The notes below the pieces were generated by a model. That model searched no databases, was not told the origin of the DNA, and was given only the letters and a program-made list of their open reading frames with translations. A program made the translations under genes and the position numbers. 64,000 nucleotides of DNA from assembly GCA_028819345.1 (NCBI GenBank), contig JAPPLW010000059.1, positions 3,890-67,889 of the forward strand, written 5' to 3'. Source of the stretch: a bacterium. GTDB lineage: Bacteria > Actinomycetota > Acidimicrobiia > Spongiisociales > ZC4RG35. The number at the start of each line of letters is the position of its first letter. The stretch's first letter is position 1. Positions 2,027-35,496 of the stretch are shown piece after piece.

Positions 2027-2055
2027 AGACAGTCTTGTAGCAGGCGGCTCGGGAG

Positions 2056-8735: not shown

Positions 8736-9266
8736 TTAGCCAGGAAGAAAGTCCGGAGGACGCCGCCGCGCCGGCGCCTCGATTAGTTCGATGATCACGC
8801 CCAGTTCCGGCTCGGTGTCGATATAGGCGAATCCGCCGTCTCCGTCCAACCCGTGCCCGAAGCCTGCCATCAGTATCTCGTACCCAGCCTCTTGCATTGC
8901 CTCTACCTCGGTCTCGATCGAGTCGACCAGGATCCCCAGGTGGTGGAGACCCTCCCCCCGCCGCTCCAGCCAATCCTCGTAGATGTTGGGACCGGCCAGC
9001 GACTGGACCAACTCGATCTGCGGATTGGCGCCGGTCCAGGCGACCTTCATCCGATAATCAGCCGGCTTGCCCAGGTAGCTGAGGGAACGGACGTTGTCGG
9101 ATGAGTAGACGTATCCCCTCCAACCCTCGAGACCCCACATCGACCCGTACGTGTCCAGGGCGCGATCGATGTCCCTGACGACTATGCCGATCTGCCCCAC
9201 CGGCTTCCCACCGAGGATGGGGACCTCCCGGCGAACTGTCTCACCGAGCCCACTTCCGGATTTCAC
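8736..9266 (-). CDS. VOC family protein (glyoxalase / methylmalonyl-CoA epimerase-like)
   Basis: 176 aa with a paired beta-alpha-beta-beta-beta module pattern, HHLGILVDS motif. Confidence 0.6.
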   Translation of the reverse strand: MKSGSGLGETVRREVPILGGKPVGQIGIVVRDIDRALDTYGSMWGLEGWRGYVYSSDNVRSLSYLGKPADYRMKVAWTGANPQIELVQSLAGPNIYEDWLERRGEGLHHLGILVDSIETEVEAMQEAGYEILMAGFGHGLDGDGGFAYIDTEPELGVIIELIEAPARRRPPDFLPG

Positions 9267-9522
9267 CGACGCCTGCCCTTCCGACCAGTGCCGAGCCCAA
9301 GGCCACCGGTAGCGGATACCGTCCGGTCACACTCCCGGCATGCGGACCACGAGGACCGAAACCAGGGTATTCGATATGAGGTCATGGGAAAATCGTGTGC
9401 CTGCGTCGACGGGGGTGCTTGTGTTCGGAACTTTACAAGACCGTGCTGGAGAGGCGGCGGAGAAGTGGCGTCAGTAGAGTCTCGAGTGGGCACAGTTATC
9501 CATGCCGACCTGGGGGAATGCA

Positions 9523-10824
9523 ATGCGGCTCGATGTCGTGAACGGGCATGTCGTCACAGGTGACGGGCGTTCGTACCTGGAGGACGCCTCCGTCACGACC
9601 GAAGACGGATTGATCACCGGCCTTCACAGGATCCGGCACCTCCCCTACCGGGTGTACTCGCATCGGGTCCTCGATGCCCGGGGCGGTCTCATACTGCCCG
9701 GGCTCATGAATATCCACTCCCACGTGGTGAGCTTCGGTCCGCTCTGTCCGGGGCTTCCGAGAGAGGCCGCTCCCAAAGAGAGGATTCTCGCCAATCTCGA
9801 CACCCACCTGCTCCAGGGGACGACCACCGTGCTCAGCCTGGACGGCTTTGCCCTGCCCTTCGAGAACGACGCCATCAACAAACTGCATCCGGTCAACGTC
9901 AAGATGGCGACTCTCCATACGCCGAAAAACGTCGCCTCCGGAGAGATGGGCGGCAACCGGCTCCCCCCTCATCACCGCGGTTTCACCGCCGAGGAGGCTG
10001 TGTCAGCGGGTGCGGTGGCCATGGGAGAAGTGGGCTCCTGGGCGACCACCGGGGCAACCTACGAGAAGAACCTGCGGCTGGAGCGGCCGGTCTCGGTGAG
10101 CGACGCACTTGCTCTGGATGCCGCTTACCTGTCGGGAGACGACCTCGCAATGGTTCGCATCATCGAGAGAGCAGGTCTCGGACCCATGTCGCTGGATGAG
10201 GCCAAGACGCTGGTGAGGGAAACCAGCGTCGAGCCGATGGCGGTGGCCAAGGAAGCGATACTGGAAACCATCGACTTCGCGCCAAGGCTGGGGATACCCG
10301 CCCTGTGCCACACCGAACCGGACACGTACGACGTTGTCCGGGAGGTCGCCCGGGAGATCGGCGATAAGTTGGTGGCGCTGCACGTCAACTACCACGCCGC
10401 GGCCGAGGAGGCGGTCGGGATGGCGAGGGAAGTCAGGGGTCACGGGGGTTTCGTGGAGGTGATCACCGCCGACCACTTCGGCGCAGGCCAGCTGGAGCCG
10501 AGTCCGGATACGGCCTTCGCCCTGCTTTCGGAAGGGCTGGTGGATGTGCTGTCCACCGACTATTCGGGGGGCTATCACGACGCCATCCTGTTGTTCATCC
10601 AGAAGGCCGTGGAACACGGGGCGGTCTCTCTCCCCCAGGCCGTGAGACTGGCCACCAGTTCCCCCGCCAGCATCATTCCCGGCCTGGCTCCCCGGAAGGG
10701 CCTCATCGAGCCGGGATACGTCGCCGACCTGGTGGTGGTGGACAGAGACGACATCACCCGCGTGAGAACCGTCATCGTCGGCGGTCGGATCGTGGTTGAG
10801 GACGGACGCCGGGTAGACCGCTAA
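9523..10824 (+). CDS. Amidohydrolase family protein (cytosine/creatinine deaminase-like)
   Basis: LPGLMNIHSHV motif. ORF opens at 9502; the ATG at 9523 has the better upstream G-rich SD. Sits divergent from mmsA and upstream of hyuAB. Confidence 0.7.
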   Translation: MRLDVVNGHVVTGDGRSYLEDASVTTEDGLITGLHRIRHLPYRVYSHRVLDARGGLILPGLMNIHSHVVSFGPLCPGLPREAAPKERILANLDTHLLQGTTTVLSLDGFALPFENDAINKLHPVNVKMATLHTPKNVASGEMGGNRLPPHHRGFTAEEAVSAGAVAMGEVGSWATTGATYEKNLRLERPVSVSDALALDAAYLSGDDLAMVRIIERAGLGPMSLDEAKTLVRETSVEPMAVAKEAILETIDFAPRLGIPALCHTEPDTYDVVREVAREIGDKLVALHVNYHAAAEEAVGMAREVRGHGGFVEVITADHFGAGQLEPSPDTAFALLSEGLVDVLSTDYSGGYHDAILLFIQKAVEHGAVSLPQAVRLATSSPASIIPGLAPRKGLIEPGYVADLVVVDRDDITRVRTVIVGGRIVVEDGRRVDR

Positions 10825-10854
10825 AGCACCCCGAGCTCGTTGCCGGCCTCCGGC

Positions 10855-12348
10855 CTAGTCGCTCCTGGGGAAACCGAGGTCGACTCCCCGGTGCATCGGG
10901 TCCGCCCACCGGCTGGTTATGACCTTCTGTCGGGTGTAGAAGTGCACGCCCTCGGGCCCGTAGATGGCGTGGGTCCCGAAGATCGAGTTCTTCCAGCCGC
11001 CGAAGGAGTAGAACGACAGCGGGACCGGTATCGGCACGTTGATGCCGACCATGCCCACCTGTACCTCGTTCTGGAACTTGCGGGCGGCGCCGCCGTCGCT
11101 GGTGAACACGGCCGTCCCGTTCCCGAACGGGTTGTCGTTGATCAACTCGATGGCCTCGCCGTAGGAGTCGAGCCGCACCGTGGAGAGGACCGGCCCGAAG
11201 ATCTCGTCGGTGTACACCGACATCTCGGGGGTGACCTGGTCGAACAGCGTGGGGCCGAGGAAGAAGCCGTCCTCGTGGCCGTCGACTTGGAAGTCCCGGC
11301 CGTCGACCACCAGCTTGGCGCCTGCCTCCTCCCCGGCGTCGACGTATCCGGCGACCCGGTCCTTGGCTTCCCTGGTGATGAGGGGTCCCATCTCGGATCC
11401 CTCGTCGAAACCGGGCGCCACCTTGAGGTCGGCGATCCGCTCCTCTATCTTCGGAATCAGGGCGTCGGCGGCGTCGCCGACGGTGACGACCACCGATATC
11501 GCCATGCACCGTTCCCCGGCGGCTCCGTACCCGGCGGAGACCGCCGAGTCGGCGGCGAGGTCCATGTCGGCGTCGGGCAGGACAACCATGTGGTTCTTGG
11601 CCCCGCCCAGGGCCTGCACCCGCTTGCCGTGCCTGGTCCCCGTCTCGTACACGTAGCGAGCGATCGGCGTGGAACCGACGAAGGAGACGGCGGCGACATC
11701 CGGGTGGGTCAAAAGCGCGTCAACCGCCACCTTGTCGCCGTGAACCACGTTGAACACCCCGTCCGGAAGCCCGGCCTCGGCGAACAACTCCGCCGCCAGA
11801 TTCGACGCTGAAGGGTCTTTCTCAGACGGCTTCAAGATGAAAGTGTTGCCGCAGGCGATGGCTATCGGATACATCCACATGGGTACCATGGTCGGGAAGT
11901 TGAACGGTGTTATGCCCGCCACGACACCCAGTGGCTGTCGTATGGTGAACGTGTCGACACCGGTGGAGACCTGCTCGGAGTACTCCCCTTTGAGGAGATG
12001 GGCGATGTTGCAGGCGAACTCGACGACTTCGAGGCCTCGCTGAACCTCGCCGAGGGCATCGTCGAGCGTCTTCCCGTGCTCCGCGGTGAGCAGCCTCGCC
12101 ATGTCGAGGCGGCGGGAGGCCACCAACTCCCGGAACGCAAACATGATGTTCTGGCGTCTGGTTACCGGAGACCGGCCCCACTCGGCGAACGCCTCTCTGG
12201 CAGTCGACACTGCGGCGTCGACCTCTGCCTCGTCAGCGAACGCCACAGCAGCCGTCTGCTGCCCGGTGGCCGGGTTGTAGACCGGTCCCGTCCTGTCCCA
12301 GGTCCCCGTCCAGGGACTGCCCCCGATCCAATGGGTGATCGTGTCCAT
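10855..12348 (-). CDS. mmsA: CoA-acylating methylmalonate/malonate-semialdehyde dehydrogenase
   Basis: ALDH superfamily. N-terminus MDTITHWIGG and motifs GITPFNFP, FILKPSEKDP are MmsA-like. Real start taken at the ATG at 12348 (GGAGGAGA SD upstream) rather than the ORF-track start at 12495. Confidence 0.85.
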   Translation of the reverse strand: MDTITHWIGGSPWTGTWDRTGPVYNPATGQQTAAVAFADEAEVDAAVSTAREAFAEWGRSPVTRRQNIMFAFRELVASRRLDMARLLTAEHGKTLDDALGEVQRGLEVVEFACNIAHLLKGEYSEQVSTGVDTFTIRQPLGVVAGITPFNFPTMVPMWMYPIAIACGNTFILKPSEKDPSASNLAAELFAEAGLPDGVFNVVHGDKVAVDALLTHPDVAAVSFVGSTPIARYVYETGTRHGKRVQALGGAKNHMVVLPDADMDLAADSAVSAGYGAAGERCMAISVVVTVGDAADALIPKIEERIADLKVAPGFDEGSEMGPLITREAKDRVAGYVDAGEEAGAKLVVDGRDFQVDGHEDGFFLGPTLFDQVTPEMSVYTDEIFGPVLSTVRLDSYGEAIELINDNPFGNGTAVFTSDGGAARKFQNEVQVGMVGINVPIPVPLSFYSFGGWKNSIFGTHAIYGPEGVHFYTRQKVITSRWADPMHRGVDLGFPRSD

Positions 12349-12644
12349 CACTCGTCTCCTCCGTTCAAGAGCTCGGGCGCCCGACGAAGCGACCATGTGC
12401 AACCATGCCGTGCCGCGTTCCCGCTCGACGGCGTCGGGCCCAGGAATTATATCAATGCTGCCGGGTGGCCGGCCCCGGCATCTCCCCGACGACACCCGTC
12501 ACGGACCCTGTTGTGATATTTTGTCACATTCCTAAGATACGGCCCTATGTCAATTCGATCCCCCGGACCCGACCGGCGCCCTGGAGTGGCCGTCGACGGA
12601 GTAATGGCTACCGGCTGTGAGGCGAATCCGAGGCTGACTTACGC

Positions 12645-14756
12645 ATGAGCGCTTCCGGCCTTCGGCCGCCCGGCGAGGCACGAATCGGCGTTGACGTGGG
12701 AGGGACGTTCACCGATGTGGTGGTCACCAGCACGGGCGGGGAAATCTATACCTACAAACTGCTGTCGACCCCCAGGGACTTCAGCGAAGGCGTGGTCGAT
12801 GGGATCCGCGAGATCATCGAGTCACACGGCGTCGAGCCGGCCGACACCCGAGATGTGGTGCATGGAAGCACCGTGGCGACCAATGCCATCCTGGAACGAA
12901 AGGGCGCTTTCACGGGTCTTCTGACCACGGCAGGGTTCGCCGACGTGCTGGAATTGCGAAGACTGCGGGTCCCGAAGTTGTACGACGTGACCTGGCAGAA
13001 GCCCGAGCCGCTGGTGGAACGCTCGCGGCGCCTGGAGGTGATCGAACGAGTGGGCGTTGACGGCAAGGTGGTCACAGCCCTGGATCTCGACGACGCCCGG
13101 CAGAAGGTGGAGGCGCTCGTCGACCTCGGGGTGGAGTCGATCGCGGTGAGCCTCATCCACTCCTACGCCAATCCCTCGCACGAGACTGCCATCGGGGAGA
13201 TGCTCGCCAGTGAGCACCCCGAAGTGTGGGCCTCGCTCTCCCACCGGGTACTGCCCGTGATCCGGGAGTACGAGAGGACCAGCACGACCGTGCTGAACGC
13301 CTACGTCAGGCCGGTGGTGGCCTCCTATCTCGAAGCGCTCCGGGGAAAGCTCGACGGCCTGGACGTGACGGCGCCCTTGCTGATCATGCAGTCCAACGGC
13401 GGGGTCATGACCAGCGAGGCGGCAGCCGAGCGGCCGGCATACGTCGTCGAGTCAGGTCCGGCGGCGGGGGTGATCGCCTCGAGCGGGCTGGCCCGGTCGT
13501 TGGGGGTGGACAACGCCATCACCTTCGACATGGGCGGCACCACCGCCAAGACCGCATTGGTGGAAGATGGCGAACCGCATTTCACCGCCGAGTTCGAGGT
13601 GGCATCGGCGATGTCGGCCGGCAGTCGCTTGCGGAGCGGAGGAGGCTATGCACTGAGCGTGCCCTTCATCGACCTCGCCGAGGTGGGAGCGGGAGGCGGC
13701 AGCATCGTTTGGATCGACTCCGCCGGCGCTCCCAAGGTCGGTCCCTCCTCGGCCGGCGCCGACCCCGGTCCGGTGTGTTACGGGAAGGGAGGCGCCGAGC
13801 CCACGGTCACCGACGCCAACCTGTTGCTGGGGTATCTGAACCCCGCGGGGCTCTTGGACGGAGCGGTCAAGCTGGATGTGGAAGGAGCCCGGGCAGCGTT
13901 CGAGGAGAAGGTCGCCGGTCCGCTGGGCCTGGACATCCCGTTCGCCGCCTACGGGGCTCACCTGATCGCCAACGCCAGCATGATCCGGGCGATCAAGTCG
14001 GTCTCGGTCCAGCGGGGCCGGGATCCCCGCGACTTCACGCTGATCGCCTTTGGGGGGAGCGGTCCGGTCCATGCGATGGGGATCGCCAGGGAGTTGGGGA
14101 TCCGCCGGGTGATAGTGCCTCCCCAGCCCGGGGTGTTCTCCGCAGTCGGATTGCTGGAGGCCCGGCTGGAATTCCATGCCAAGAAGACCTTCCTCCGGCG
14201 CACCGCCGAACTGTCCCGGCGGGAACTCCAATCGGAGATCCGGGAACTGGAGGCCCAGGCGCGGGAAGGAGTGGGACATGGGAGCCTTCATACCGTCTCC
14301 TTCGAATTCGAGCCCTGGGTGGAGATGCGATACGTCGGCCAGGGCTTCGAGCTACCCGTGAGACTTCCGGGGTTCACCGACGACTGGACGTCATGGGTGG
14401 AGGAACTGGACCGGGCGTTCGGCGAGCAGCACCTCAACACTTACGGCCATGTGACCAACAACGCAACGGAGATCGTGCAACTGCTGGTGGTGATACGCGA
14501 ACAGAATCCGGTGGGCGTCCCGGTCGGCAGGCGCCCCGACTCGCAACCGGATGAGTCGAACAGGAGGGAAGTCTTCTTCGGCGGTGAGATCGGACTCCTG
14601 TCCACGCCGGTGCTCCGCCGCGGCGACCTCACGGCTACCCCCCGCCAGGCGCCGATGATCATTGAGGACTACGACGCCACCACGGTGGTGCCGCCCGGCT
14701 ACCGGGTCTTCCGGGACCGGTCCCAGAGTGTGATCATCGAGGAGGACTCGACATGA
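12645..14756 (+). CDS. hyuA: Hydantoinase/oxoprolinase family protein, subunit A (ATP-dependent)
   Basis: 703 aa. N-terminal ARIGVDVGGTFTDVV is the HyuA/oxoprolinase-A motif. Confidence 0.85.
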   Translation: MSASGLRPPGEARIGVDVGGTFTDVVVTSTGGEIYTYKLLSTPRDFSEGVVDGIREIIESHGVEPADTRDVVHGSTVATNAILERKGAFTGLLTTAGFADVLELRRLRVPKLYDVTWQKPEPLVERSRRLEVIERVGVDGKVVTALDLDDARQKVEALVDLGVESIAVSLIHSYANPSHETAIGEMLASEHPEVWASLSHRVLPVIREYERTSTTVLNAYVRPVVASYLEALRGKLDGLDVTAPLLIMQSNGGVMTSEAAAERPAYVVESGPAAGVIASSGLARSLGVDNAITFDMGGTTAKTALVEDGEPHFTAEFEVASAMSAGSRLRSGGGYALSVPFIDLAEVGAGGGSIVWIDSAGAPKVGPSSAGADPGPVCYGKGGAEPTVTDANLLLGYLNPAGLLDGAVKLDVEGARAAFEEKVAGPLGLDIPFAAYGAHLIANASMIRAIKSVSVQRGRDPRDFTLIAFGGSGPVHAMGIARELGIRRVIVPPQPGVFSAVGLLEARLEFHAKKTFLRRTAELSRRELQSEIRELEAQAREGVGHGSLHTVSFEFEPWVEMRYVGQGFELPVRLPGFTDDWTSWVEELDRAFGEQHLNTYGHVTNNATEIVQLLVVIREQNPVGVPVGRRPDSQPDESNRREVFFGGEIGLLSTPVLRRGDLTATPRQAPMIIEDYDATTVVPPGYRVFRDRSQSVIIEEDST

Positions 14757-16576
14757 CCGCATCGGGTGGAGCAGCCGCCATAGAGCGGGAACTGATCCGC
14801 GAGGGTCTGGCGGCGATATGCGAGGAGATGGCGGTGAGCGTCCTGCGGACTTCCCATTCGGAGACGGTGAAGAGCGCCATGGACTTCTCCACCGCCCTGT
14901 GTGACGAGACCGGGCAGATAATCGCCCAGGGAGTCACGCTTCCCAACCAACTCGGCGCCCTCCCGGAGGCGGTGGCGGCGATTCTGAGGCGTTTTGAGGG
15001 AGATCTCCATCCGGGCGACGTGGCCATGGTCAACGATCCGTTCGACGGCGGCATGCACCTTCCCGACATCTTCGTCGTGCGCCCTGTTTTCTTCGCCTCC
15101 GAGTTCGTGGGACTGGTGGCGACGGTGGCCCACCACGCCGACCTGGGCGGGATGGTGGCCGGGAGCATGTCCCCCTATGCGGAGGAGTGCTTCCAGGAGG
15201 GCCTACGGATCCCGCCGGTGAAGCTGTATTCGCGGGGAAGGCGGGAGGAGGGAGTGTTCGCCCTGCTGGGCGCCAACACCCGGGTGCCGGACATCGTCCT
15301 GGGAGACTTCGACGCGCAACTGGTGGCTTGTGCGACCGGCGTCCAAGCCTTCCACCGGATGATCCGCCGGTACGGATTGGCGGAGTTCAGGGCCCACGTG
15401 GCGGCTCTGTTGGACTACACGGAGATGCTCACCCGCCAGGAGATCAGGACCTTCCCCGAGGGGACCTACTCGTACGTCGACTATCTGGACGACGACGGTG
15501 TCCGCGACGATCCGGTGCCCATCGTCGTCTCCATCGAGATACGCGACGGTGGAGTCACCCTCGACTTCACGGGGAGCTCACCCCAGGTCCGGTCCTCTCT
15601 GAACAACACCCTGTCGTTCACCCATTCGAACACCTACGCGGCGATGCGCGCCCTGCTGCGGTCCGACATTCCCAACAACGCCGGGTTCTTCCGGCCGATA
15701 ACGGTCAAGGCGCCGCGGGGATGCATCCTCAACTGCGTCCTTCCGGCCGCCACCGGGACCCGCGGATTGACCGGTTTCAGGGTGATGGACGCCATCTTCG
15801 GCGCCCTGGCGCCCGCTCTCCCCGACCGGGTGATGGGCGCTTCCGACGGCGGGCTGTCGCTGGTGACGGTGGGAGGGGTGAGACCGGAGGGCGAGCGGTT
15901 CTCGGTGGTGGAACTGATCTCCGGGGCGTGGGGTGGCCAGGCTCTCCAGGACGGGGAGGACGGCGTGCCGAACGTGGGCGCCAATGTGAGCAACATCCCC
16001 GTCGAGATGCTCGAGTCGTCCCTTCCCGTGCGCGTCGATCGCTACGGCTACGTTCCCGACACGGGCGGCGCCGGCCTCCACCGGGGCGGCCTCTCACTCC
16101 AGCGCGAGTACACGTTCCTCCAGGAGTGCGACCTGAGCGTACGCTCCGACCGGGCAACCATCTATCCCTACGGGATCGGCGCCGGAAGGCCCGGAACCCC
16201 ATCATTGAACCTTCTGGGTCCGGATGGCGAGGAGACGCGGATGCCGTCGAAGTTCTCCCAGCGGGTCACGGAAGGGATGCGCCTGATTCATCGCACCGCC
16301 GGCGCCGGCGGTTGGGGAGACCCGCTCTACCGGGACCCGGAGCAAGTCGCAACCGATGTTCACAACGGGATACTGTCAACCGAGCGGGCATTCGCCGAAT
16401 ACGGGGTGGTCCTGATGCCGGATACGGACGAAGTCGACCGGGAAGCCACCGAAACGGAACGGACGGCACGCCGCGCCACGTCTGAAGACGCCACGTCCAC
16501 CCCGATCTCTCCATCGGCCCCGACACCGCTGGAGGACCGCATCAGCGACAAACTAAGAGCGTCTGGGAAGTTCTAG
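14753..16576 (+). CDS. hyuB: Hydantoinase/oxoprolinase family protein, subunit B
   Basis: ATGA overlap with hyuA. 607 aa with HyuB-type sequence (DPFDGGMHLPD...). Confidence 0.85.
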   Translation: MTASGGAAAIERELIREGLAAICEEMAVSVLRTSHSETVKSAMDFSTALCDETGQIIAQGVTLPNQLGALPEAVAAILRRFEGDLHPGDVAMVNDPFDGGMHLPDIFVVRPVFFASEFVGLVATVAHHADLGGMVAGSMSPYAEECFQEGLRIPPVKLYSRGRREEGVFALLGANTRVPDIVLGDFDAQLVACATGVQAFHRMIRRYGLAEFRAHVAALLDYTEMLTRQEIRTFPEGTYSYVDYLDDDGVRDDPVPIVVSIEIRDGGVTLDFTGSSPQVRSSLNNTLSFTHSNTYAAMRALLRSDIPNNAGFFRPITVKAPRGCILNCVLPAATGTRGLTGFRVMDAIFGALAPALPDRVMGASDGGLSLVTVGGVRPEGERFSVVELISGAWGGQALQDGEDGVPNVGANVSNIPVEMLESSLPVRVDRYGYVPDTGGAGLHRGGLSLQREYTFLQECDLSVRSDRATIYPYGIGAGRPGTPSLNLLGPDGEETRMPSKFSQRVTEGMRLIHRTAGAGGWGDPLYRDPEQVATDVHNGILSTERAFAEYGVVLMPDTDEVDREATETERTARRATSEDATSTPISPSAPTPLEDRISDKLRASGKF

Positions 16577-16774
16577 CCCCATCGTCGGGAAGGCGCAGGG
16601 ACGACTTGTCCGCTCGCGAAATCATCAAACGGCGGGAACCCTTGCAGCGTCTGATAGGACACCTATAGTGTCGTACGGACGTCGGAGGGAGGACCGCTGA
16701 TGCCTACGACCATTTCCCGGGAGGAAACGCGACGGGAGACAGCTTCTCCATGAGAATCGCGTACCAAGAGGCCA

Positions 16775-16826
16775 TGATGAGTCGCAATATGAGTTAGTAT
16801 GAGTCATTATTGAGTCATCACAGGAG
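16775..16826 (+). promoter_or_regulatory. Putative vapBC promoter/operator: four (A)TGAGT(C/T)A repeats including the 9-bp palindrome ATGAGTCAT, followed by an AGGAG SD
   Basis: Direct repeats at about 10-11 bp phasing immediately upstream of vapB in a lower-GC stretch. This is the typical layout of RHH-antitoxin autoregulatory operators. Confidence 0.45.
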
Positions 16827-16833
16827 TATGATT

Positions 16834-17097
16834 ATGAACCAACTGACCGTGAGGGGATTCGGCGACGAACTGGGCTCAGCGGTGCGTCGTCTGGCAGCTC
16901 GGGAGAGAATCTCTCTGAACCAAGCTGCACTGAGACTGCTGCGGCGGGGCGCCGGACTGGCCGAAGGCGCCGACACGGCAGAAAGGGTGGGGTCTTCCCT
17001 GGATCACCTAATAGGCAACTGGACTCTGGAAGAGGCCGATGAGTTGGATGCCGCGCTGGAAGATTTCGAGACCATCGACGCGGATGCCTGGAAGTGA
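16834..17097 (+). CDS. vapB: Type II antitoxin, RHH/CopG-like (VapB)
   Basis: Small protein MNQLTVRGFGDEL...ISLNQAALRLL. AGGAG lies 7 nt upstream of the ATG at 16834 (the track ORF opens at a TTG at 16810). GTGA overlap with the downstream PIN gene. Confidence 0.7.
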   Translation: MNQLTVRGFGDELGSAVRRLAARERISLNQAALRLLRRGAGLAEGADTAERVGSSLDHLIGNWTLEEADELDAALEDFETIDADAWK

Positions 17098-17492
17098 GGG
17101 TCCTGCTGGACTCCAACGCCTACTCCATGCTCATGCGGGGGCACGGGCAGGTCACCGAACTGGTTAGAAGGGCTGAGGAACTGTTGTTCTCCGCCGTTGT
17201 GGTCGGTGAGCTCCTTTACGGATTCCGGCGCGGATCCCGTTTCCAGCAAAACCTGGCCGACCTTCGCTCCGTCCTCGCCAGCCCGTATTCGTCGTTCGTG
17301 GAGGTGGGATCTGTAACAGCGGACCGCTACTCGCGGATCGCTGCATCCCTGCGGGCCAAGGGGCGTCCTATCCCTACCAACGATGTCTGGATAGCCGCCC
17401 ACACGATGGAGACCGGCGCCGATCTCGTTTCGGCCGATCAACACTTCGGACACATCGACGGCATAGTCTGGATACCGATCCCCGCCACCTAA
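17094..17492 (+). CDS. vapC: Type II toxin, PIN-domain ribonuclease (VapC)
   Basis: MRVLLDSNAY...D...NDVWIAAHT. PIN-domain acidic residues are in place. Overlaps the antitoxin stop. Confidence 0.8.
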   Translation: MRVLLDSNAYSMLMRGHGQVTELVRRAEELLFSAVVVGELLYGFRRGSRFQQNLADLRSVLASPYSSFVEVGSVTADRYSRIAASLRAKGRPIPTNDVWIAAHTMETGADLVSADQHFGHIDGIVWIPIPAT

Positions 17493-17503
17493 CGCCTGCC
17501 CGA

Positions 17504-19767: not shown

Positions 19768-19852
19768 CTCACACCTTCCTTCGGCACAAATGGCATTTCC
19801 TCACCGCCTTCCTCCAGCAAGGGGGATCCTGATTGCTCATAGCGGCTCAACA

Positions 19853-21418: not shown

Positions 21419-21584
21419 GTCCCGGTGAATGCCTTCGAGTCAAGTCTTCAAGTGGCCGGTCTTGCAACTGATAACGGCGCTGTCATGTAGGTGGGAGGCG
21501 CCGAATCGTCGTCGGGTAAGGGGCAAAAATATCGCTCCACCCCCTGACCGCGGCAGGGGTGCGTGGCTACCATGGCTGATATAT

Positions 21585-21608
21585 GTTACACAATGCATAT
21601 TGTGCAAC
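21585..21608. promoter_or_regulatory. 24-bp near-perfect palindrome GTTACACAATGCATATTGTGCAAC in the divergent intergenic region
   Basis: 9 of 10 positions match between the two arms. Lies between the divergent D-aminoacylase operon and the ABC/amidase/GntR operon. GT-N-AC cores fit a GntR-family operator. Confidence 0.5.
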
Positions 21609-21711
21609 AGGCAGGAGCGCCGGCTTCCGCTGACCATCGCTGCTGCTCTCCATAAAGACCATTGGAGTGACATATCGAGCAGTGTCACGTCCGATAGGAA
21701 GGATTGAACAG

Positions 21712-22782
21712 ATGCCTAAGAAATACTTACGAAGTCTCGTAGCTGTCATCATCGCTCTCGCCATGGTGGCGGCAGCCTGCGGTGAGGATGAGCCCGCAGA
21801 GACCACGGCGGCGCCAACCACAACCGCCGCTCCGACTACCACCGCGGCTCCCGAGGAAGAGCCGATTCGTATCGGGCTGGTCATTCCCGACTTCACCCAG
21901 AACGAGCTGATCCTTGCCCTGAAGACCGGCGCGGACGACGCCGCTGCCGACTACGGCGTGGAACTGTTGGTGACAGGTAGCGGTAGCGCCCAGGATCTGG
22001 TGGCAGCCGTCGAGAACTACGCGGCTGCAGGTGTTGACGTGATCGTCTATGACACGATCGACGCCCAGGCCCTGGCGCCTGCGATTCTCGCCTTGAACGA
22101 CGCCGGCATTCCGGTGGTCTGCACGGTTGCCTGTGCTTCCGAGGGCGTCAGCGCCATCGAGATCGGCTACGACTACCGGACCGACATGGGACGGCCGCTC
22201 GGTGATTGGCTGGCCGCTTACGAGCCGGCGCCGAAGAAACTCGCCTTCATCGACTCCAACCAGGCCGATGAATCGATCGCTGCCATCTACGCCGGAATCG
22301 AAGACGGCCTGGAAGCCGGTGGACTGACTGACGTCGAGAGGGTTGTATCCCCACCCACCAACTGGGACCGGGCGGCAGGCCTCGACGCGGCAAGGTCACT
22401 GCTGACCGCCCACCCGGATGTGGACATCATCGTGGGCTTGCATGACCTCCTGGCCGGGGCGACCCTGACCGCCATGGAGGAGCTGGGTTACAAGGAGACC
22501 ACTTTGACCGGTCTCGGCGGCACCTGCGAAGGCCTCATGAACATTCTTGAGGGCCGCCAGGCGCTCACCGTGATCCAACCGCTCTATCCGGCCGGCTACC
22601 TGGCCGTTGAAGCGGCCGTCAAGATCGCCCAGGGAGAAACCATGACAGAGGACTTCATCCCGATCGGCATGGTGGTGGTCGACAAGGCGTTCGCCGAAGG
22701 CGTGCTGGACGGTTCGGAAGAGCCCGTGCAGAGCGGTGTTGACCTCAAGACAGCACTGGACGCCGCAGCGGCTGGTTGCTAA
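21712..22782 (+). CDS. ABC transporter substrate-binding lipoprotein, periplasmic-binding-protein type 1 (ribose/sugar-binding-like fold)
   Basis: MPKKYLRSLVAVIIALAMVAAAC lipobox, then a Thr/Ala/Pro-rich linker and a PBP1 fold (IGLVIPD...). Start chosen at the ATG at 21712 rather than the upstream ORF start. Confidence 0.75.
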   Translation: MPKKYLRSLVAVIIALAMVAAACGEDEPAETTAAPTTTAAPTTTAAPEEEPIRIGLVIPDFTQNELILALKTGADDAAADYGVELLVTGSGSAQDLVAAVENYAAAGVDVIVYDTIDAQALAPAILALNDAGIPVVCTVACASEGVSAIEIGYDYRTDMGRPLGDWLAAYEPAPKKLAFIDSNQADESIAAIYAGIEDGLEAGGLTDVERVVSPPTNWDRAAGLDAARSLLTAHPDVDIIVGLHDLLAGATLTAMEELGYKETTLTGLGGTCEGLMNILEGRQALTVIQPLYPAGYLAVEAAVKIAQGETMTEDFIPIGMVVVDKAFAEGVLDGSEEPVQSGVDLKTALDAAAAGC

Positions 22783-22811
22783 ACACCGACAACTTCTAAC
22801 CCATTAGGTGA

Positions 22812-22859
22812 CGATGGCTCCCTCCTGCCAATCCAAGAGATGCGGCGGGAGGGAGCCAT
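22812..22859 (+). other. Intra-operon stem-loop (13-bp stem GATGGCTCCCTCC / GGGAGGGAGCCATC)
   Basis: Inverted repeat between the binding-protein gene and the permease gene. This is a typical partial terminator that sets a high binding-protein-to-permease ratio. Confidence 0.45.
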
Positions 22860-22918
22860 CGGCCTGATCCTGGGCTCGTTAGAGTCCGCATAGGGACAAA
22901 GAGCGGCTTGAAAGAAGT

Positions 22919-23950
22919 GTGAGTTTCGTGGTTGACTCGAATCAGGCGCAAGCGAGCGAGGGGCCCGCAAGGGTGCGACGTGGCTTGATCAGATACCGGC
23001 AACTGTGGGCGTTGTTGATTGCGGTTCTGCTCCTTTGGACTTACCTGAGCTTTGCCAGCCCCTACTTCATGACCGTGCAGAACCTGACCAACATCGCTTT
23101 GCAGAGTTCGGTGGTGGGGATCATGGCGGTCGGGTTCACCATCCTGCTGATCGGCGGAGAGATCGACCTGGCGATCGGCTCCACCCAGGCCCTGGCCGGA
23201 ACCATGGCCGCACTGCTCATCATCCAACGCGAACTGCCGATCTGGGCCGGGGTACTGATAGTGCTGGGCATGGGCCTGATCGTCGGGAACGTGAACGGGT
23301 ACTTCTCCCTGTTCACAAAGGTCCCGTCGTTCATCGTCACGCTGGCCATGCTGGGGGTCCTCCAGGGCCTTGCCTTCGTGATGACCAGCGGACAGACGAT
23401 CGGTGGGTTCCCGGAAGCCTTCAAAGTCCTGGGTCACGGCAAGGTGGGGGTGATCCCGCTACCGGTGATCATCTTCTTTTCGGTCACCGTGGTCGTGCAA
23501 CTGGTGCTGAGCCACACACGATACGGCGTGGAACTGTACGCCACCGGTGGCAATCGGGAGGCGGCGGAACTGGTGGGCATAAGCGTCAGGAGGGTCTTGA
23601 TGCTGGCCTTCATCGCCAGTTCGATGCTGTGCACCCTGGCGGGGCTGGTGCTGAGCGCCCGGCTGAACGCCGGCCACGGCTCCTTCGGATCGGAGTCGCT
23701 GCTCGATGCGGTGGCGGCGGTGATCATCGGGGGGACATCGCTGAACGGCGGCGCCGGCAATACGTTCGGGACGCTTCTGGGGATCATCCTGATAAGCACC
23801 ATCAAGAACGGCCTGATCCTGCTGGGGGTGGATCCGTTCTGGCAGCAGGTGGCGGTCGGCGCCCTGATCCTGGCAGCAGTCCTGGTGGACAAGACCATCA
23901 AGGGCGAACTGGCGCCGGGAGACCTCCTGCCCAGGTTGGTGAGACGATGA
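22919..23950 (+). CDS. ABC transporter permease (RbsC/branched sugar-type, CUT2 family)
   Basis: About 10 TM segments with CUT2-permease-like sequence (GGEIDLAIGS...). Confidence 0.8.
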   Translation: MSFVVDSNQAQASEGPARVRRGLIRYRQLWALLIAVLLLWTYLSFASPYFMTVQNLTNIALQSSVVGIMAVGFTILLIGGEIDLAIGSTQALAGTMAALLIIQRELPIWAGVLIVLGMGLIVGNVNGYFSLFTKVPSFIVTLAMLGVLQGLAFVMTSGQTIGGFPEAFKVLGHGKVGVIPLPVIIFFSVTVVVQLVLSHTRYGVELYATGGNREAAELVGISVRRVLMLAFIASSMLCTLAGLVLSARLNAGHGSFGSESLLDAVAAVIIGGTSLNGGAGNTFGTLLGIILISTIKNGLILLGVDPFWQQVAVGALILAAVLVDKTIKGELAPGDLLPRLVRR

Positions 23951-24738
23951 CTGTGTCCGCTCCCCCGGGCATGAGCGGGCCCAACGGGAACGGCGCCCTC
24001 GACCGGATTCCCGGGCCGGTGATGATGGCCAGGGGCGTCCACAAGTCCTTCGGCCAGGTACGCGCCCTGATCGACGCCACGTTTCAGGTCGACGAGGGAG
24101 AGACCGTGGCGATAGTGGGTGACAACGGCGCCGGCAAGTCGACGCTGGTCAAGATCCTGACCGGCGCCATACAACCGGATACCGGCTCCCTCGAACTGGA
24201 CGGTACGGAGGTGAGTTTCCGAACCACCCGGGACTCTTTGCAACTGGGGGTGACGGCGGTCTATCAGAACCTGGCGCTGGCCGACAACATGACCGTGGCC
24301 GAAAACGTGTTCCTGGGCCGGGTGCCTACCCGATGGCTCAGGGTGGACCGCCGGAGGATGGAAAAGGAGTCGGCGGAACTCCTCGACTCCCTGGCGATCA
24401 ACGTGCCCGACGTCAGAGCACGGACGGCATTGCTGTCGGGTGGACAGCGTCAGGCGGTGGCGATCGCCCGGGCCTTCCGGTCCGGCCGGAGGCTGATGAT
24501 CCTGGACGAGCCGACCGCAGCCCTGGGAGTCCAGGAGGGCCAGAAGGTCTTGGACATCATCGAAGGGCTCAAGGGACAGAGGGTCTCGATCATCGTGGTC
24601 AGTCACAACCTCGACCACGTGTTCCGGGTGGCTGATCGAATCGTGGTGATGAGGGGAGGCCGGATTGTGGGTTCACGCCGAAAGGAAGAAACGACCACCG
24701 CCGACATCGTCCATCTGATAGTGGGAACCCGGGAGTGA
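23947..24738 (+). CDS. ABC transporter ATP-binding protein (single nucleotide-binding domain)
   Basis: ATGA overlap with the permease. Walker A GDNGAGKST, signature LSGGQRQAV. Only 263 aa, so a single NBD. Confidence 0.85.
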   Translation: MTVSAPPGMSGPNGNGALDRIPGPVMMARGVHKSFGQVRALIDATFQVDEGETVAIVGDNGAGKSTLVKILTGAIQPDTGSLELDGTEVSFRTTRDSLQLGVTAVYQNLALADNMTVAENVFLGRVPTRWLRVDRRRMEKESAELLDSLAINVPDVRARTALLSGGQRQAVAIARAFRSGRRLMILDEPTAALGVQEGQKVLDIIEGLKGQRVSIIVVSHNLDHVFRVADRIVVMRGGRIVGSRRKEETTTADIVHLIVGTRE

Positions 24739-24778
24739 GGCGGTCGATGTCGGTGGTAAGGAACGGTTGGGAGAGAAA

Positions 24779-26338: not shown

Positions 26339-26341
26339 GAC

Positions 26342-27682: not shown

Positions 27683-27711
27683 GAGACGACTCGACGAAAG
27701 GGGCGACGAGG

Positions 27712-28380
27712 TTGCAGCACAACTGGACCATAGAACAGCGGATTACCAAGGAGCTTCGAGACCTCATAGTGGCAGGGGAACTCGAACCGGGCGTCCGGGT
27801 CCGCTATCGGGATCTTGCCGAGCAGTTCGGGGTCAGTGTTACGCCGGTTCGCGCCGCGGTGCGGGAACTGGCGCACGAGGGGTTGATCGACGCCCGCCCC
27901 AACTCCGCCAACTACGTGTCTCCGCTGTCACTCGATGAGATCGAACAGCTGTACCTGGCCAGGATGGGGTTTGAATCGTGGCTGGCCCGCCTGGGGGCTC
28001 CCCGCCTGTCGAGCCAGGGCTTGAGCGTGATGGAGGAGAGGCTCCAGAGGTTCCAGGCGGCCGCCGAGCAAAGCAAAACCGAATGCCTGATGGACATCGC
28101 CTGGGAGATGCGGTCGGTCTGTTACGAGGCCGCCGATCGTCCCAGCCTGCTGCAAAAGGCGGCGGACCTTTACGATCGCTCCCGCCGTTACACCCATCGG
28201 ACACTGATGGTTGCTTCCCGACGCCAAAGGTCGGCAGTCGTGGCGAAGGCCTTTTACGGCGCCTGCCTGGAGCGCGACGGCAGTCTGGCTGCGGAGACCA
28301 TCCGGGGGGCACTTGAGGTGACCTTCCAAGATCTCCTCAGCATGATCGACCCGGCGGAAAACGGGCAACTGGCCTCCTAG
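27712..28380 (+). CDS. GntR family transcriptional regulator (FadR/FCD subfamily)
   Basis: N-terminal wHTH (LAEQFGVSVTPVRAAVRELAHEGLI) plus an FCD-type C-terminal domain. Last gene of the operon. Confidence 0.85.
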   Translation: MQHNWTIEQRITKELRDLIVAGELEPGVRVRYRDLAEQFGVSVTPVRAAVRELAHEGLIDARPNSANYVSPLSLDEIEQLYLARMGFESWLARLGAPRLSSQGLSVMEERLQRFQAAAEQSKTECLMDIAWEMRSVCYEAADRPSLLQKAADLYDRSRRYTHRTLMVASRRQRSAVVAKAFYGACLERDGSLAAETIRGALEVTFQDLLSMIDPAENGQLAS

Positions 28381-28430
28381 ACGGTCGGCTGCGATACCGG
28401 CCTCCGGGCCGGGGCCCCGTGGCGGGGAAC

Positions 28431-29330
28431 CTACTCGGGAGCCCTGCCCACTTCGGCGCCCATCATGTGCTCCAAGGCCTTGACCAGGGCGTGCTGACCC
28501 TCCGATCCCAGACCCCGGTGCTGCAGCGACCGGTAGAGCTGGAACACCAGACCAGTGGTCGGCAGGGGAACGCCCAACTCGTCCCCCGCCTCCAGGACCA
28601 GGCGGATGTCCTTCTGCTGAAGGTCGATGGTGAATCCCGGGCGCCAGTCCCGAACGATCATCTGCGGTCCCCGGTTGGCCAGCATCCACGAGTTGGCCGC
28701 ACCACCGGTCAGAGCCGACAGGGCTGTCTCCAGGTCCAGCCCGCCCGCGTCGGCCAGCAGCAACGCCTCACACGCCGCTTGCATGTTCACCACCACCAGC
28801 ACCTGGTTCACCAGCTTCACCATCTGTCCCGACCCCACCGGACCGACATGGGTGATGGTTTTTCCCATCGCATCCAGATAGGGGCGCACCCTATCCAGAT
28901 CGGAGGCGTCGCCTCCCACCATGATCGACAGGGTCCCAAGCTCCGCTCCTTCGCTTCCGCCGCTCACCGGACCGTCCAGCCAGGAGCCTCCCGCCTCGGA
29001 GGCCAGACCTGCCAGACGCCGGGTCTCTGACGGGCTGATGGTGGAGTGGTCGACAACCAACGAACCCGGGGACAGCCCGGCCAGGATCCCGTCGGGCCCT
29101 TCGGTGACAGCTACCACGTCGGGAGTGTCGGCAACGCAGATCAACACCACGGTGGATTGTTCCGCCACTTCCCGGGGCGACCCCGCCGGCGAGGCGCCCA
29201 GGTCGGTCACCGGCGCCATCTTGGAAGCGGTGCGGTTCCACACCGTCACCTCGAAGCCGGCGCGCACCAGGTTGGCGGCCATCCCTCCCCCCATGATCCC
29301 CAGCCCGATGAATCCAAGCTTCTCACTCAC
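28431..29330 (-). CDS. NAD-dependent 3-hydroxyisobutyrate dehydrogenase family reductase
   Basis: Start SEKLGFIGLGIMGG (Rossmann fold) and HIBADH-family catalytic region. Start chosen at the GTG at 29330, which has AAGGAG 5 nt upstream; the ORF track extends to 29354. Confidence 0.8.
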   Translation of the reverse strand: MSEKLGFIGLGIMGGGMAANLVRAGFEVTVWNRTASKMAPVTDLGASPAGSPREVAEQSTVVLICVADTPDVVAVTEGPDGILAGLSPGSLVVDHSTISPSETRRLAGLASEAGGSWLDGPVSGGSEGAELGTLSIMVGGDASDLDRVRPYLDAMGKTITHVGPVGSGQMVKLVNQVLVVVNMQAACEALLLADAGGLDLETALSALTGGAANSWMLANRGPQMIVRDWRPGFTIDLQQKDIRLVLEAGDELGVPLPTTGLVFQLYRSLQHRGLGSEGQHALVKALEHMMGAEVGRAPE

Positions 29331-35447: not shown

Positions 35448-35496
35448 GAGAGGTGTCTATCCACCGGCTCGCCTTCACCTCCCAAACCGGTCCGCA

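Follow-up and report, generated by a model that had tools for sequence, protein, structure and literature searches.

A probable GntR-controlled gene cluster for the uptake and breakdown of a small cyclic amide, built on HyuAB and a D-aminoacylase-like enzyme, in an uncultured actinobacterium

Genes and features of the locus

The stretch of DNA analysed here (the window) covers 64 kb of contig JAPPLW010000059.1 from an uncultured actinobacterium of the class Acidimicrobiia. It holds about 12 genes, very probably co-regulated, that probably serve the import and dismantling of a small ring-shaped amide. They encode both subunits of an enzyme of the hydantoinase/oxoprolinase family (HyuA and HyuB, together HyuAB), a divergent D-aminoacylase-like amidohydrolase (DAA), a Kbl/BioF-family enzyme that uses pyridoxal phosphate (PLP), a hydrolase of the phosphotriesterase (PTE) family resembling the phosphotriesterase-related protein (PTER), an ATP-binding cassette (ABC) importer of the CUT2 type, an amidase, a class-III aminotransferase and a GntR/FCD regulator (Table 1).

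An initial annotation of the region between 8736 and 29330 had described a catabolic cluster with its own importer and GntR regulator, which our results support. HyuA/HyuB, the amidase, the class-III aminotransferase, the CoA-acylating (CoA, coenzyme A) dehydrogenase MmsA, the Kbl-like, PTE-like and D-aminoacylase-like enzymes, the importer and the regulator were all confirmed by Pfam and NCBIfam. The inventory was mostly right, but it overlooked the VapB/VapC pair. A supposed cyclase-fold neighbour is a Glyoxalase_4/VOC protein by Pfam, and of two HIBADH-type reductases assigned to the region one lies inside it, the second being located at 42262-43134.

Genes were called by third-position G+C and checked against the gene calls of a 101-kb metagenome scaffold, part of which is identical to the window (ENA ERZ23495468, scaffold_534), and families were assigned by Pfam and NCBIfam profile scores with curated cutoffs. 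MmsA alone passed its NCBIfam cutoff; all other enzymes of the 8.7-29.4 kb region are divergent, sub-threshold members of their families. By their source names, the closest protein relatives of the window proteins come from metagenome-assembled genomes of Acidimicrobiia or unclassified Actinomycetia. The G+C content is 62-69% throughout the window with no local shift, and because both G+C and skew are flat along it, a compositional genomic island was ruled out. Consensus scans of the window returned no promoter-like sites, and terminator-like sites were fewer than in shuffles.

Table 1. Genes and other features of the locus, with positions and strands in the window
Feature	Position	Strand	Family evidence and remarks
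VOC/glyoxalase	8736-9266	-	Pfam Glyoxalase_4; flanking gene
Divergent 440-aa amidohydrolase	9502-10824	+	Weak Amidohydro_1/3; membership doubtful
MmsA, CoA-acylating methylmalonate/malonate-semialdehyde dehydrogenase	10855-12348	-	TIGR01722; lineage-specific neighbour
Candidate operator TGTGATATTTTGTCACA, GTGAT-N5-GTCAC palindrome	12512-12528	.	mmsA/hyuA intergenic region
HyuA, ATP-binding subunit, hydantoinase/oxoprolinase family, 703 aa	12645-14756	+	Pfam Hydant_A_N, Hydantoinase_A, Hydant_A_C
HyuB, metal-containing subunit, 607 aa	14753-16576	+	Pfam Hydantoinase_B, 566 bits
VapB-like antitoxin and VapC (PIN) toxin	16834-17492	+	PIN domain; insertion, outside the pathway
PTER-like phosphotriesterase-family hydrolase, 366-370 aa	17504-18616	-	Pfam PTE, 233 bits
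Kbl/BioF-family (alpha-oxoamine synthase) PLP enzyme, 384 aa	18613-19767	-	Aminotran_1_2, 203 bits
DAA, divergent D-aminoacylase-like amidohydrolase, 521 aa	19853-21418	-	Amidohydro_3; first gene of the DAA-Kbl-PTE operon
26-bp palindrome TGTTACACAATGCATATTGTGCAACA	21584-21609	.	Between the divergent DAA and binding-protein genes
Peripla_BP_4 binding protein	21712-22782	+	Pfam; CUT2-type ABC importer (21712-24738)
BPD_transp_2 permease	22928-23950	+	Pfam; CUT2-type ABC importer
Single-domain ABC ATPase	23947-24738	+	Pfam; CUT2-type ABC importer
Amidase-signature amidase, 519 aa	24779-26338	+	Pfam Amidase, 269 bits
Class-III (omega-amine type) aminotransferase, 446 aa	26342-27682	+	Aminotran_3
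GntR/FCD regulator	27712-28380	+	Pfam GntR and FCD; last gene of the importer operon
HIBADH-type NAD(P) dehydrogenase	28431-29354	-	Pfam NAD_binding_2 and NAD_binding_11; flanking gene

Conservation of the cluster and its candidate operator

For comparison, 80 genome loci with 10-kb flanks were taken from the DAA homologue matches listed, the closest Acidimicrobiia relatives were reached by exact-protein look-ups, and loci are cited by L numbers. Among the matches listed, HyuA/B was found within 10 kb in 8 of the 10 loci with a DAA of at least 47% identity, but in 1 of 70 loci with paralogues (Fisher p = 1.4e-8). The linked loci belong to Alphaproteobacteria, Burkholderiales, Cellulomonas, Latescibacterota, Gaiellaceae and Thermoleophilia. 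In L002-L004 the HyuA, HyuB and DAA genes are contiguous, and L087 carries a stand-alone four-gene operon, HyuA-HyuB-DAA-GntR(FCD). These linkage counts together with the stand-alone operon indicate that HyuAB, DAA and the FCD-type GntR protein form a widespread module, which spans Actinomycetota, Proteobacteria and Latescibacterota. The regulator has an orthologue (41-77% identity) in every cluster variant, including the minimal operon of L087.

Around this module a larger set of genes is conserved. Close relatives (DAA 87%) have the same gene order as the window, minus MmsA and with a Fic gene in place of VapBC. The 69% relative GCA_041744375.1 (L084/L088) has the binding protein, permease, ATPase, amidase, HyuA and HyuB genes on one strand and those for the PTE, GntR, Kbl and DAA proteins on the opposite strand, the whole cluster being bounded on both sides by unrelated genes. 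The Gaiellaceae locus L089 and locus L090 carry the blocks HyuB-DAA-Kbl, PTE with the importer, and DAO-HpcH/HpaI-amidase-GntR-transaminase-PTE2. A metagenome scan with the PTE alignment found soil contigs with a PTE of at least 47% identity that carry Kbl, DAA, importer, amidase, DAO and HpcH genes (L093-L103 hold parts), and on the soil contig L100 the order is HyuA-HyuB-DAA-Kbl-binding protein-permease-ATPase-PTE, with all eight genes on one strand. The conserved extended set therefore consists of HyuAB, DAA, the Kbl-like and PTE-like enzymes, the CUT2 importer, the amidase and GntR, which the transaminase usually joins. It is found in Acidimicrobiia and in Gaiellaceae-type Thermoleophilia in shuffled order, with DAO and the HpcH aldolase added in the Gaiellaceae type. 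The conserved heart, that is, HyuAB with DAA and the Kbl-like gene directly 3' of the latter, had been overlooked in the initial annotation. The overall idea of that annotation is partly supported.

The Gaiellaceae-type clusters also hold duplicated copies, at 20580-21542 and 13722-14774 in L089 and at 14336-15756 and 795-1793 in L090. The second PTE is 32% identical to the window protein and lies directly 3' of the transaminase gene. The duplicated Hyu and PTE copies hint at two ring-opening steps or two related substrates.

Genes adjoining the module vary: DAO and a sarcosine-oxidase alpha-like gene stand 3' of DAA in L009, and the module is accompanied by Aminotran_4 and DAO genes in L086 and by DAO genes in L089 and L090. 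Such neighbours, with their action on free D- or N-methyl amino acids, count in favour of the route proposed below. The plasmid collection contained no DAA orthologue, every match being at most 36% identical, and so yielded no cultured-strain model. A Rhodococcus plasmid carries GntR, HyuA, HyuB, an MFS transporter and a cysteine hydrolase, a gene set which suggests that a different second-step hydrolase fills the DAA slot there, and on a Bosea plasmid HyuAB is followed by a DSD1-family D-serine-dehydratase-like enzyme. HyuAB homologues of 43-45% identity on Agrobacterium, Sinorhizobium and Paracoccus plasmids (L145, L147 and L141) are followed by a gene of the 'sugar phosphate isomerase/epimerase family'. 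Their context comprises amino-acid ABC, SDR and GntR genes in L145 and L147 and a different ABC transporter with a GntR gene in L141; L141 and L147 also carry a shikimate-dehydrogenase-like gene, and L145 lies on a cucumber hairy-root plasmid. These three may be loci of opine-type lactam catabolism. A DAO-DAA fusion protein (P0044) was set aside as a Rosetta-stone link, being probably a frameshift artefact on a contig full of split genes, and adjacency alone was used.

It could be argued that there is no single pathway here and that the 20 kb are a chance juxtaposition of independent small operons in an amidohydrolase-rich genome. The VOC, 440-aa amidohydrolase, MmsA and HIBADH genes are indeed not conserved with the rest, a toxin-antitoxin pair or a Fic gene interrupts the block, HyuAB-DAA-GntR stands alone in other genomes, and the flanking operons are likewise hydrolase-rich. 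We nevertheless regard such a coincidence as very unlikely, as the gene set has been kept through at least four gene orders in two actinobacterial classes, eight of its genes are co-directional in L100 and an operator motif is common to the clusters. Synteny and operator both show a core grouping beyond chance. The idea of one locus of about 20 kb stands in part; the unit is smaller than 8736-29330. Taken together, the data suggest that the genes very probably form a real, co-regulated catabolic unit built on HyuAB and DAA.

The motif in question, GTGAT-N5-RTCAC, has a single match in the window (0.29 expected), namely TGTGATATTTTGTCACA, about 115 bp upstream of hyuA. It recurs in six lineages (L082/83, L084/85/88, L087, L089, L090 and L100), and the sites inspected lie upstream of hyuA in L082/83, L084/85/88, L087 and L090 and upstream of the transaminase gene in L089. 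Only 2 unrelated loci among the 144 fetched contain it (Poisson p ~2e-6). We regard it as a good candidate for the operator bound by the co-inherited FCD-GntR protein, which probably represses the hyuAB promoter at GTGAT-N5-GTCAC until a carboxylate intermediate binds. The protein may also act on the divergent DAA and importer promoters. The 26-bp palindrome between them, TGTTACACAATGCATATTGTGCAACA, is kept in L082/L083, and L084 has TTGTGAT-N7-ATCACAA upstream of DAA. TGTTACACAATGCATATTGTGCAACA was rejected as an instance of GTGAT-N5-RTCAC, which it does not match, and has only TTGTG half-sites in common with the hyuA operator; the same regulator may bind there. Because only the half-sites are common, co-regulation of all three operons is likely and is regarded as putative.

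Several neighbours do not travel with the cluster. MmsA, the VOC protein, the 440-aa amidohydrolase and HIBADH are lineage-specific and lie outside the conserved set. MmsA scored 743 bits against TIGR01722 (cutoff 448) and its gene shares an intergenic region with hyuA, but it is missing between the 440-aa amidohydrolase gene and hyuA in L082/L083 and from all other cluster loci. The VOC protein matched the methylmalonyl-CoA epimerase model weakly (40 bits, cutoff 115) and occurs in no other cluster locus. HIBADH is present in L082 and not in L084/88, L089 or L090. A chain ending in oxidation of a semialdehyde to a CoA ester had been suggested initially; since these genes are confined to this genome or its close relatives, and MmsA is absent even from the 87%-identical ones, such a chain describes the neighbourhood and not the conserved system.

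For the 440-aa amidohydrolase, the Amidohydro_1/3 matches are weak and close solved structures were not found; its family is small (137 matches), and it adjoins hyuA in the close relatives L082/83 only. Among more distant homologues, the one in L143 stands with NicX-like and peptide-ABC genes and that in L144 with HpcH, D-Ser-dehydratase-like and racemase genes. As a first pathway step it was rejected, its linkage to the cluster being unsupported beyond the close relatives. Four amidohydrolase-superfamily genes had been counted between 8736 and 29330; three are found there, and the fourth (Amidohydro_1, 5853-7055) belongs to an upstream peptide-ABC operon. This co-directional operon (311-8059) also encodes an SBP_bac_5 binding protein, permeases, two oligo_HPY ATPases and a NicX-like protein (7055-8059). 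In L143 a 64% homologue of the 440-aa amidohydrolase lies beside NicX-like and SBP_bac_5 genes, and the window protein may therefore belong functionally with this operon and not with hyuAB.

Between hyuB and the PTE gene lies a hot spot for insertions. It is occupied by VapB/VapC in the window and by a Fic-domain gene in the 87-88% relatives (L082 13942-15498; L091 11198-12567), and after the Fic gene of L091 comes a second, partial copy of the PTE gene, taken from its 3' end (…GISNEVIRQIIVNNPAGLLPIR). On the other side of the cluster, HIBADH adjoins a gene for an ERG4/ERG24 membrane protein (sterol-reductase-like, DUF1295-related; 29496-30629, minus strand), as it also does in L082 (80% identity). 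Further along, a PEP_hydrolase-like gene and a UPF0261 gene lie side by side at 34617-36708, after which come genes for a fused Oxidored_FMN/Pyr_redox_2 protein (36719-38716) and, on the opposite strand, for an AMP-binding ligase.

Enzymes and proposed pathway

From the gene content, linkage and operator observed, we infer every chemical step of the route outlined below. We propose with moderate confidence that the cluster is a catabolic regulon under GntR/FCD control and acts on a small polar cyclic amide, comprising import, ring opening, deacylation and PLP-dependent processing, and, a little more confidently, that ring opening and deacylation follow in that order. Among candidate substrates, cyclic ureides (hydantoin or dihydropyrimidine type) rank first and N-substituted lactams second; a ureide is preferred only tentatively over a lactam or a cyclic dipeptide.

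The compound would first be taken up by the ribose-type ABC importer. Importer orthologues (40-96% identity) are present in all extended clusters, and the binding protein is most like ribose-binding proteins, distantly (82 bits). Between the binding-protein and permease genes lies a hairpin (22813-22860) with a perfect 13-bp stem (GATGGCTCCCTCC … GGAGGGAGCCATC), which may act as an attenuator within the operon or stabilise the mRNA.

Inside the cell, HyuAB would spend ATP on activating the ring amide, HyuA phosphorylating its lactim form, and the ring C-N bond, whose hydrolysis is otherwise unfavourable, would be hydrolysed at the HyuB metal site to give an N-carbamoyl or N-acyl amino acid. 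Hydrolysis of caprolactam was computed to be strongly endergonic (PMC8453981), which explains the need of HyuAB-family enzymes for ATP. The two subunit genes lie side by side and overlap by 4 bp, HyuB being translationally coupled to hyuA, and the proteins scored 324 bits (Hydantoinase_A) and 566 bits (Hydantoinase_B). The ATP-site motifs of the family are DxGGTxTD, DxGGT and GxxPGP in the A subunit, and its B subunit has an Asp-His-Asp-His metal tetrad (PMC8453981). HyuA has DVGGTFTD from residue 17, DMGGT from residue 295 and GADPGP in its translation; AMDFS, GMHLPD and AHHAD in HyuB, read by eye from the translation, are consistent with the tetrad.

Against solved structures, HyuB scored highest with the N-methylhydantoinase 7hk5 (308 bits), followed by the caprolactamase 6yra (241), acetophenone carboxylase (106) and acetone carboxylase (50). 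N-methylhydantoinase or 5-substituted hydantoinase activity is thus a candidate, similarity to 7hk5 being the only evidence. In a creatinine/N-methylhydantoin route, a deaminase (possibly the 440-aa amidohydrolase) would form N-methylhydantoin, HyuAB would open it to N-carbamoylsarcosine, DAA would replace the usual amidase and sarcosine would be oxidised to glycine. The annotation of 7hk5, the DAO and sarcosine-oxidase-alpha-like genes 3' of DAA in L009 and the co-directional 440-aa amidohydrolase, hyuA and hyuB genes of L082 would fit. In addition, by term counts, N-methylhydantoinase, creatinine and N-carbamoylsarcosine occur side by side in two papers on sponge microbiomes (PMC6742649 and PMC7848895). 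We judge this route quite improbable, as the window has no sarcosine oxidase/DAO homologue, creatininase or isochorismatase-type amidase, the 440-aa amidohydrolase does not travel with the module, and the Kbl-like and PTER-like enzymes, amidase, transaminase and sugar-type importer would be left unexplained.

The best NCBIfam models for HyuA and HyuB are those of the caprolactamase subunits CapA (NF050156, 513 bits) and CapB (NF050157, 286 bits). This would agree with an omega-lactam route of the caprolactam or valerolactam type, in which HyuAB opens an unsubstituted lactam to an omega-amino acid, the transaminase converts it to a semialdehyde, MmsA oxidises the latter and the other hydrolases are unrelated neighbours. 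The combination of lactamase, omega-transaminase and aldehyde dehydrogenase is that of the Pseudomonas jessenii pathway (PMC6061476). Both scores, however, are far under the cutoffs of 1000, the conserved HyuAB partner is DAA and not the transaminase, which is absent from the L084 cluster, MmsA is not conserved, and the other hydrolases are conserved with HyuAB. Such a route appears extremely unlikely.

In the proposed sequence, DAA would then strip the carbamoyl or acyl group from the ring-opened product, in place of HyuC or the N-carbamoylsarcosine amidase of known hydantoin routes. The nearest solved structures of DAA are the N-acyl-D-Glu deacylase 3gip and the D-aminoacylase 1m7j. Its metal ligands (HxH, Cys, His, His) and catalytic Asp (H60, H62, C89, H214, H244 and D401) are invariant across the aligned DAA homologues and match their equivalents in 3gip and 1rjq, as is typical of D-aminoacylases. 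Tyr194, Lys254, Tyr285, Ser291 and Arg379 of the N-acetyl-D-glucosaminate deacetylase PpOngB have been termed strictly conserved (PMC12017989). By profile alignment, DAA retains an equivalent of Tyr194 (Y186), but the Lys of 'SHHK' is deleted (SH-LVPR) and the Arg of 'HPRLWG' falls on Thr/Val of 'TFHGAY', while the Tyr285/Ser291 region and the central insertion domain are unalignable. Since the Lys and Arg, which hold the alpha-carboxylate of the substrate in all characterised D-aminoacylases and in OngB, are missing, the substrate of DAA may not be an ordinary N-acyl-alpha-amino acid. DAA is an uncharacterised branch of the D-aminoacylase fold, as judged by its sequence.

OngB, itself of the D-aminoacylase fold, deacetylates N-acetyl-D-glucosaminate (PMC12017989), and together with the CUT2 ribose type of the importer this raises the question of a sugar-derived or opine-like substrate. 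An amino-sugar acid or an Amadori/opine-type conjugate would be attacked in its amide, lactone and lactam forms by the amidase, the PTE-like enzyme as a lactonase and HyuAB as a lactamase, one form each, and DAA would act like OngB on an N-acyl-2-amino-aldonate. DAO and the HpcH/HpaI aldolase join the cluster in Gaiellaceae and soil variants; sugar-acid genes adjoin the module in L004 (FAA hydrolase, enolase superfamily, LacI and lactonase-like) and in L086 (ILVD_EDD and RraA-like). On the Agrobacterium hairy-root plasmid the HyuAB homologues have ABC-transporter, SDR and dehydratase genes around them, and a marine PTE group is accompanied by an SGL lactonase, GFO/IDH/MocA, DAO and HpcH. Nevertheless, DAA scores lower against OngB than against D-aminoacylases and lacks the carboxylate anchors common to them, the N-alkyl bond of an opine is not cleavable by an amidohydrolase, and sugar kinase, sugar dehydrogenase and aldolase are absent from the window cluster. 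The agropinic-acid genes of Ti plasmids may be HyuAB-like, but the literature searched gave no confirmation of this. A sugar-derived substrate is considered rather unlikely.

Following ring opening and deacylation, the freed amino acid would be processed by the Kbl-like enzyme, most plausibly by CoA-dependent cleavage of a 2-amino-3-oxo acid to glycine and an acyl-CoA. The protein belongs to the alpha-oxoamine synthase (AOS) superfamily and has the PLP-lysine motif GTLGKA from residue 227. It scored 387 bits against bioF (cutoff 426), 368 against Kbl PRK06939 (460) and 376 against TIGR01825 (535), is equally far from Kbl, BioF and serine palmitoyltransferase, and is nearest among solved structures to the Thermus AOS/KBL enzyme 7poa. 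Its gene is directly 3' of DAA in every extended cluster and, in the window, overlaps the PTER-like gene by 4 bp.

The conserved order HyuA-HyuB-DAA-Kbl would also suit a carboxylase reading, in which HyuAB is an ATP-dependent carboxylase like its distant relatives acetone and acetophenone carboxylase. An N-acyl aminoketone, e.g. N-acetylaminoacetone, would give N-acyl-2-amino-3-oxobutanoate, DAA would deacylate it, and the Kbl-like enzyme would release glycine and acetyl-CoA; this would explain a Kbl-type enzyme without a dehydrogenase to make the 3-oxo group. HyuAB is, however, much closer to hydrolases, with 271, 181 and 111 bits against the ApcC, ApcA and ApcD models (cutoffs 1250-1500), the window gene map shows no gamma-subunit or other extra carboxylase gene adjoining hyuAB, and many HyuAB-DAA operons have no adjacent Kbl gene. 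Carboxylation is accordingly thought very improbable.

In the later steps of the proposed breakdown of a cyclic amide, the PTER-like hydrolase and the amidase would remove remaining N-acyl or carboxamide groups, and the class-III transaminase would convert an omega- or beta-amine to a semialdehyde, which in this genome the adjacent MmsA could oxidise to an acyl-CoA. The amidase has the GGSSGG motif, is nearest among solved structures to the Rhodococcus aliphatic/aryl amidase 3a1k and has orthologues of 61-65% identity in L084, L089, L090, L094, L102 and L103. The nearest solved structures of the transaminase are amine:pyruvate transaminases; its Gaiellaceae orthologue is 68% identical and has the operator motif upstream, and none occurs in the L084/L088 cluster.

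PTER is an animal hydrolase of N-acetyltaurine and N-acetyl-beta-alanine (PMC11374699, PMC13311154, PMC12873775). The window protein aligns over its full length with 9efa, a 'phosphotriesterase-related protein' (231 bits), from residue 14 through the PTER-type helical insertion. We take 9efa to be the sponge PTER structure of PMC12873775; the paper gives no code, but the residue numbers agree after a shift of two. The residues compared were the binuclear site (His27, His29, Glu174, His206, His235 and Asp303) and the catalytic Tyr131 and His305. All His and Asp ligands are retained, as is Tyr131, but Lys191 stands in the position of Glu174 and Cys (Val in L084) in that of His305. Equivalents of the anion-binding Arg209 (THTGR) and Tyr268 (SSFY) are present, and Arg238 and Phe270 are replaced by Leu and Ala. 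A second PTER-like group, 43-46% identical to the window protein, was observed on marine contigs (L104-L128, G+C ~0.44; e.g. L117 12-11032). It is surrounded by two MFS transporters, an HpcH/HpaI aldolase, SMP-30/gluconolactonase, DAO, a GFO/IDH/MocA oxidoreductase and a class I/II aminotransferase, which looks like another uncharacterised pathway with the PTE, DAO and HpcH trio in common.

The likeness to PTER also brings in a beta-amino-acid route resembling pyrimidine breakdown. HyuAB would open a ring of the dihydrouracil or dihydrothymine type or a ribosylated form, e.g. dihydrouridine, the PTER-like enzyme or DAA would hydrolyse the N-carbamoyl-beta-amino acid, and the transaminase would give malonate or methylmalonate semialdehyde, which MmsA would convert to acetyl- or propionyl-CoA; HIBADH and the epimerase-like VOC protein would serve the same branch. 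The full-length match to 9efa with the anion-binding Arg209 and Tyr268 retained, the PTE paralogue immediately 3' of the transaminase gene in L089 and L090, MmsA above its cutoff with HIBADH and the weakly methylmalonyl-CoA-epimerase-like VOC protein adjoining, and the ribose type of the binding protein all agree with it, and the loss of alpha-carboxylate anchors in DAA would fit a beta-amino acid. On the other side, MmsA, HIBADH and VOC are not conserved with the cluster, the route has no role for the amidase or for the Kbl-like enzyme, the tightest partner of DAA, and in the PTER-like protein the bridging Glu174 has become Lys and His305 Cys. No match to dihydropyrimidine dehydrogenase, Zn-dihydropyrimidinase or beta-ureidopropionase was found in 8736-29354; dihydropyrimidinase models reached at most 39 bits (cutoffs 393-647), the one with the cutoff of 393 reaching 37 bits. 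On balance, we consider this route unlikely.

Several observations also weigh against our own proposal. The missing carboxylate anchors of DAA, seen in the profile alignment, depart from substrate binding in the D-aminoacylases AfDam and BbDam and in OngB; canonical Kbl chemistry needs a 3-oxo group, which no dehydrogenase in the self-contained L084 and L100 sets would make; and uptake of a hydantoin through a ribose-type binding protein would be unusual. The second Hyu subunit (HyuA in L089, HyuB in L090) and second PTE paralogue of the Gaiellaceae-type clusters are unexplained by a single-ring scheme, the DAA/binding-protein palindrome differs in motif from the hyuA operator, and the PTER-like enzyme and the amidase were given their roles by analogy alone. 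Because of the anchors, the absent dehydrogenase, the sugar-like binding protein and the duplicated HyuAB/PTE copies, four alternatives are kept alive: the beta-amino-acid (pyrimidine), creatinine, sugar-derived and carboxylation routes.

Comparison with known systems

To our knowledge, HyuAB-type ATP-dependent enzymes have few known substrates (5-oxoproline, N-methylhydantoin and other hydantoins, caprolactam and valerolactam) besides their carboxylase reactions. Here one HyuAB lineage is tied to an uncharacterised D-aminoacylase-fold branch across several phyla, and in soil and marine Actinomycetota the pair has recruited fixed further enzymes and a sugar-type importer, with a candidate operator in common. 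The cluster could reveal a new substrate for ring-amide catabolism and new activities for the D-aminoacylase, PTER and Kbl families, and it may be relevant to the cycling of nitrogen-rich heterocycles in soil and in marine hosts. The three- or four-gene core with its binding protein and ligand-sensing regulator is a defined, experimentally tractable target.

A resemblance to the hydantoin/creatinine, caprolactam and reductive-pyrimidine routes without a match to any of them, as first proposed, holds: all enzymes except MmsA are below the family cutoffs, and the set recurs rearranged in other classes. Full-text searches of the searchable literature found no described pathway or co-mention of a hydantoinase with a D-aminoacylase or deacylase, nor of the extended gene set, and nothing on ATP-dependent diketopiperazine hydrolysis, N-methylhydantoinase structures or an agropinic-acid lactamase; a paper on an oxazolone synthetase proved to have no bearing on the cluster. 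No collection searched held close homologues in the same order within a characterised pathway.

In Pseudomonas sp. NS671, HyuAB hydrolyses hydantoins to N-carbamoyl amino acids, from which HyuC frees the amino acid (PMC8453981). The window cluster likewise has unfused HyuA and HyuB and would use a second hydrolase to free the amino acid. It differs in that a D-aminoacylase-fold amidohydrolase holds the HyuC slot and in the addition of Kbl-like and PTER-like enzymes, amidase, transaminase, sugar-type importer and GntR. Creatinine degradation uses an ATP-dependent N-methylhydantoin amidohydrolase, N-carbamoylsarcosine amidase and sarcosine oxidase. The subunit structure of N-methylhydantoinase is given in PMC8453981. 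Common to that route and the window are the HyuB nearest to N-methylhydantoinase, a logic of ring opening and then decarbamoylation, and the relative L009 with sarcosine-oxidase-like genes, whereas the window lacks creatinine deaminase/creatininase, the isochorismatase-type amidase and sarcosine oxidase.

The caprolactam pathway of Pseudomonas jessenii, as set out in PMC6061476 and PMC8453981, employs the caprolactamase CapAB, an omega-transaminase and an aldehyde dehydrogenase. An ATP-dependent lactamase family, a class-III transaminase and an aldehyde dehydrogenase occur in both, with common ATP motifs and, as read from the window translation, apparently common metal-binding residues. The window proteins, in contrast, score about half (CapA) and less than one third (CapB) of the equivalog cutoffs and have a conserved partner amidohydrolase, and MmsA is not conserved.

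With AfDam, BbDam and the GlcNAc1A deacetylase OngB (PMC12017989), DAA has in common the fold, the HxH/Cys/His/His metal site and the catalytic Asp, whereas the anchoring Lys and Arg are not matched in DAA and linkage to HyuAB is unreported for the known enzymes. With PTER, the window hydrolase has in common the helical insertion, which typical bacterial PTEs lack, and equivalents of HxH, His206, His235, Asp303, Tyr131, Arg209 and Tyr268. It differs from PTER by Lys in place of the bridging Glu174, as in classical PTEs, by Cys for His305, Leu for Arg238 and Ala for Phe270, and by its gene context. Within the searchable literature, the HyuAB-DAA pairing and the extended set match no described pathway; the cluster is not a new kind of system, since all of its parts come from known enzyme families and clusters with an unassigned substrate are common.

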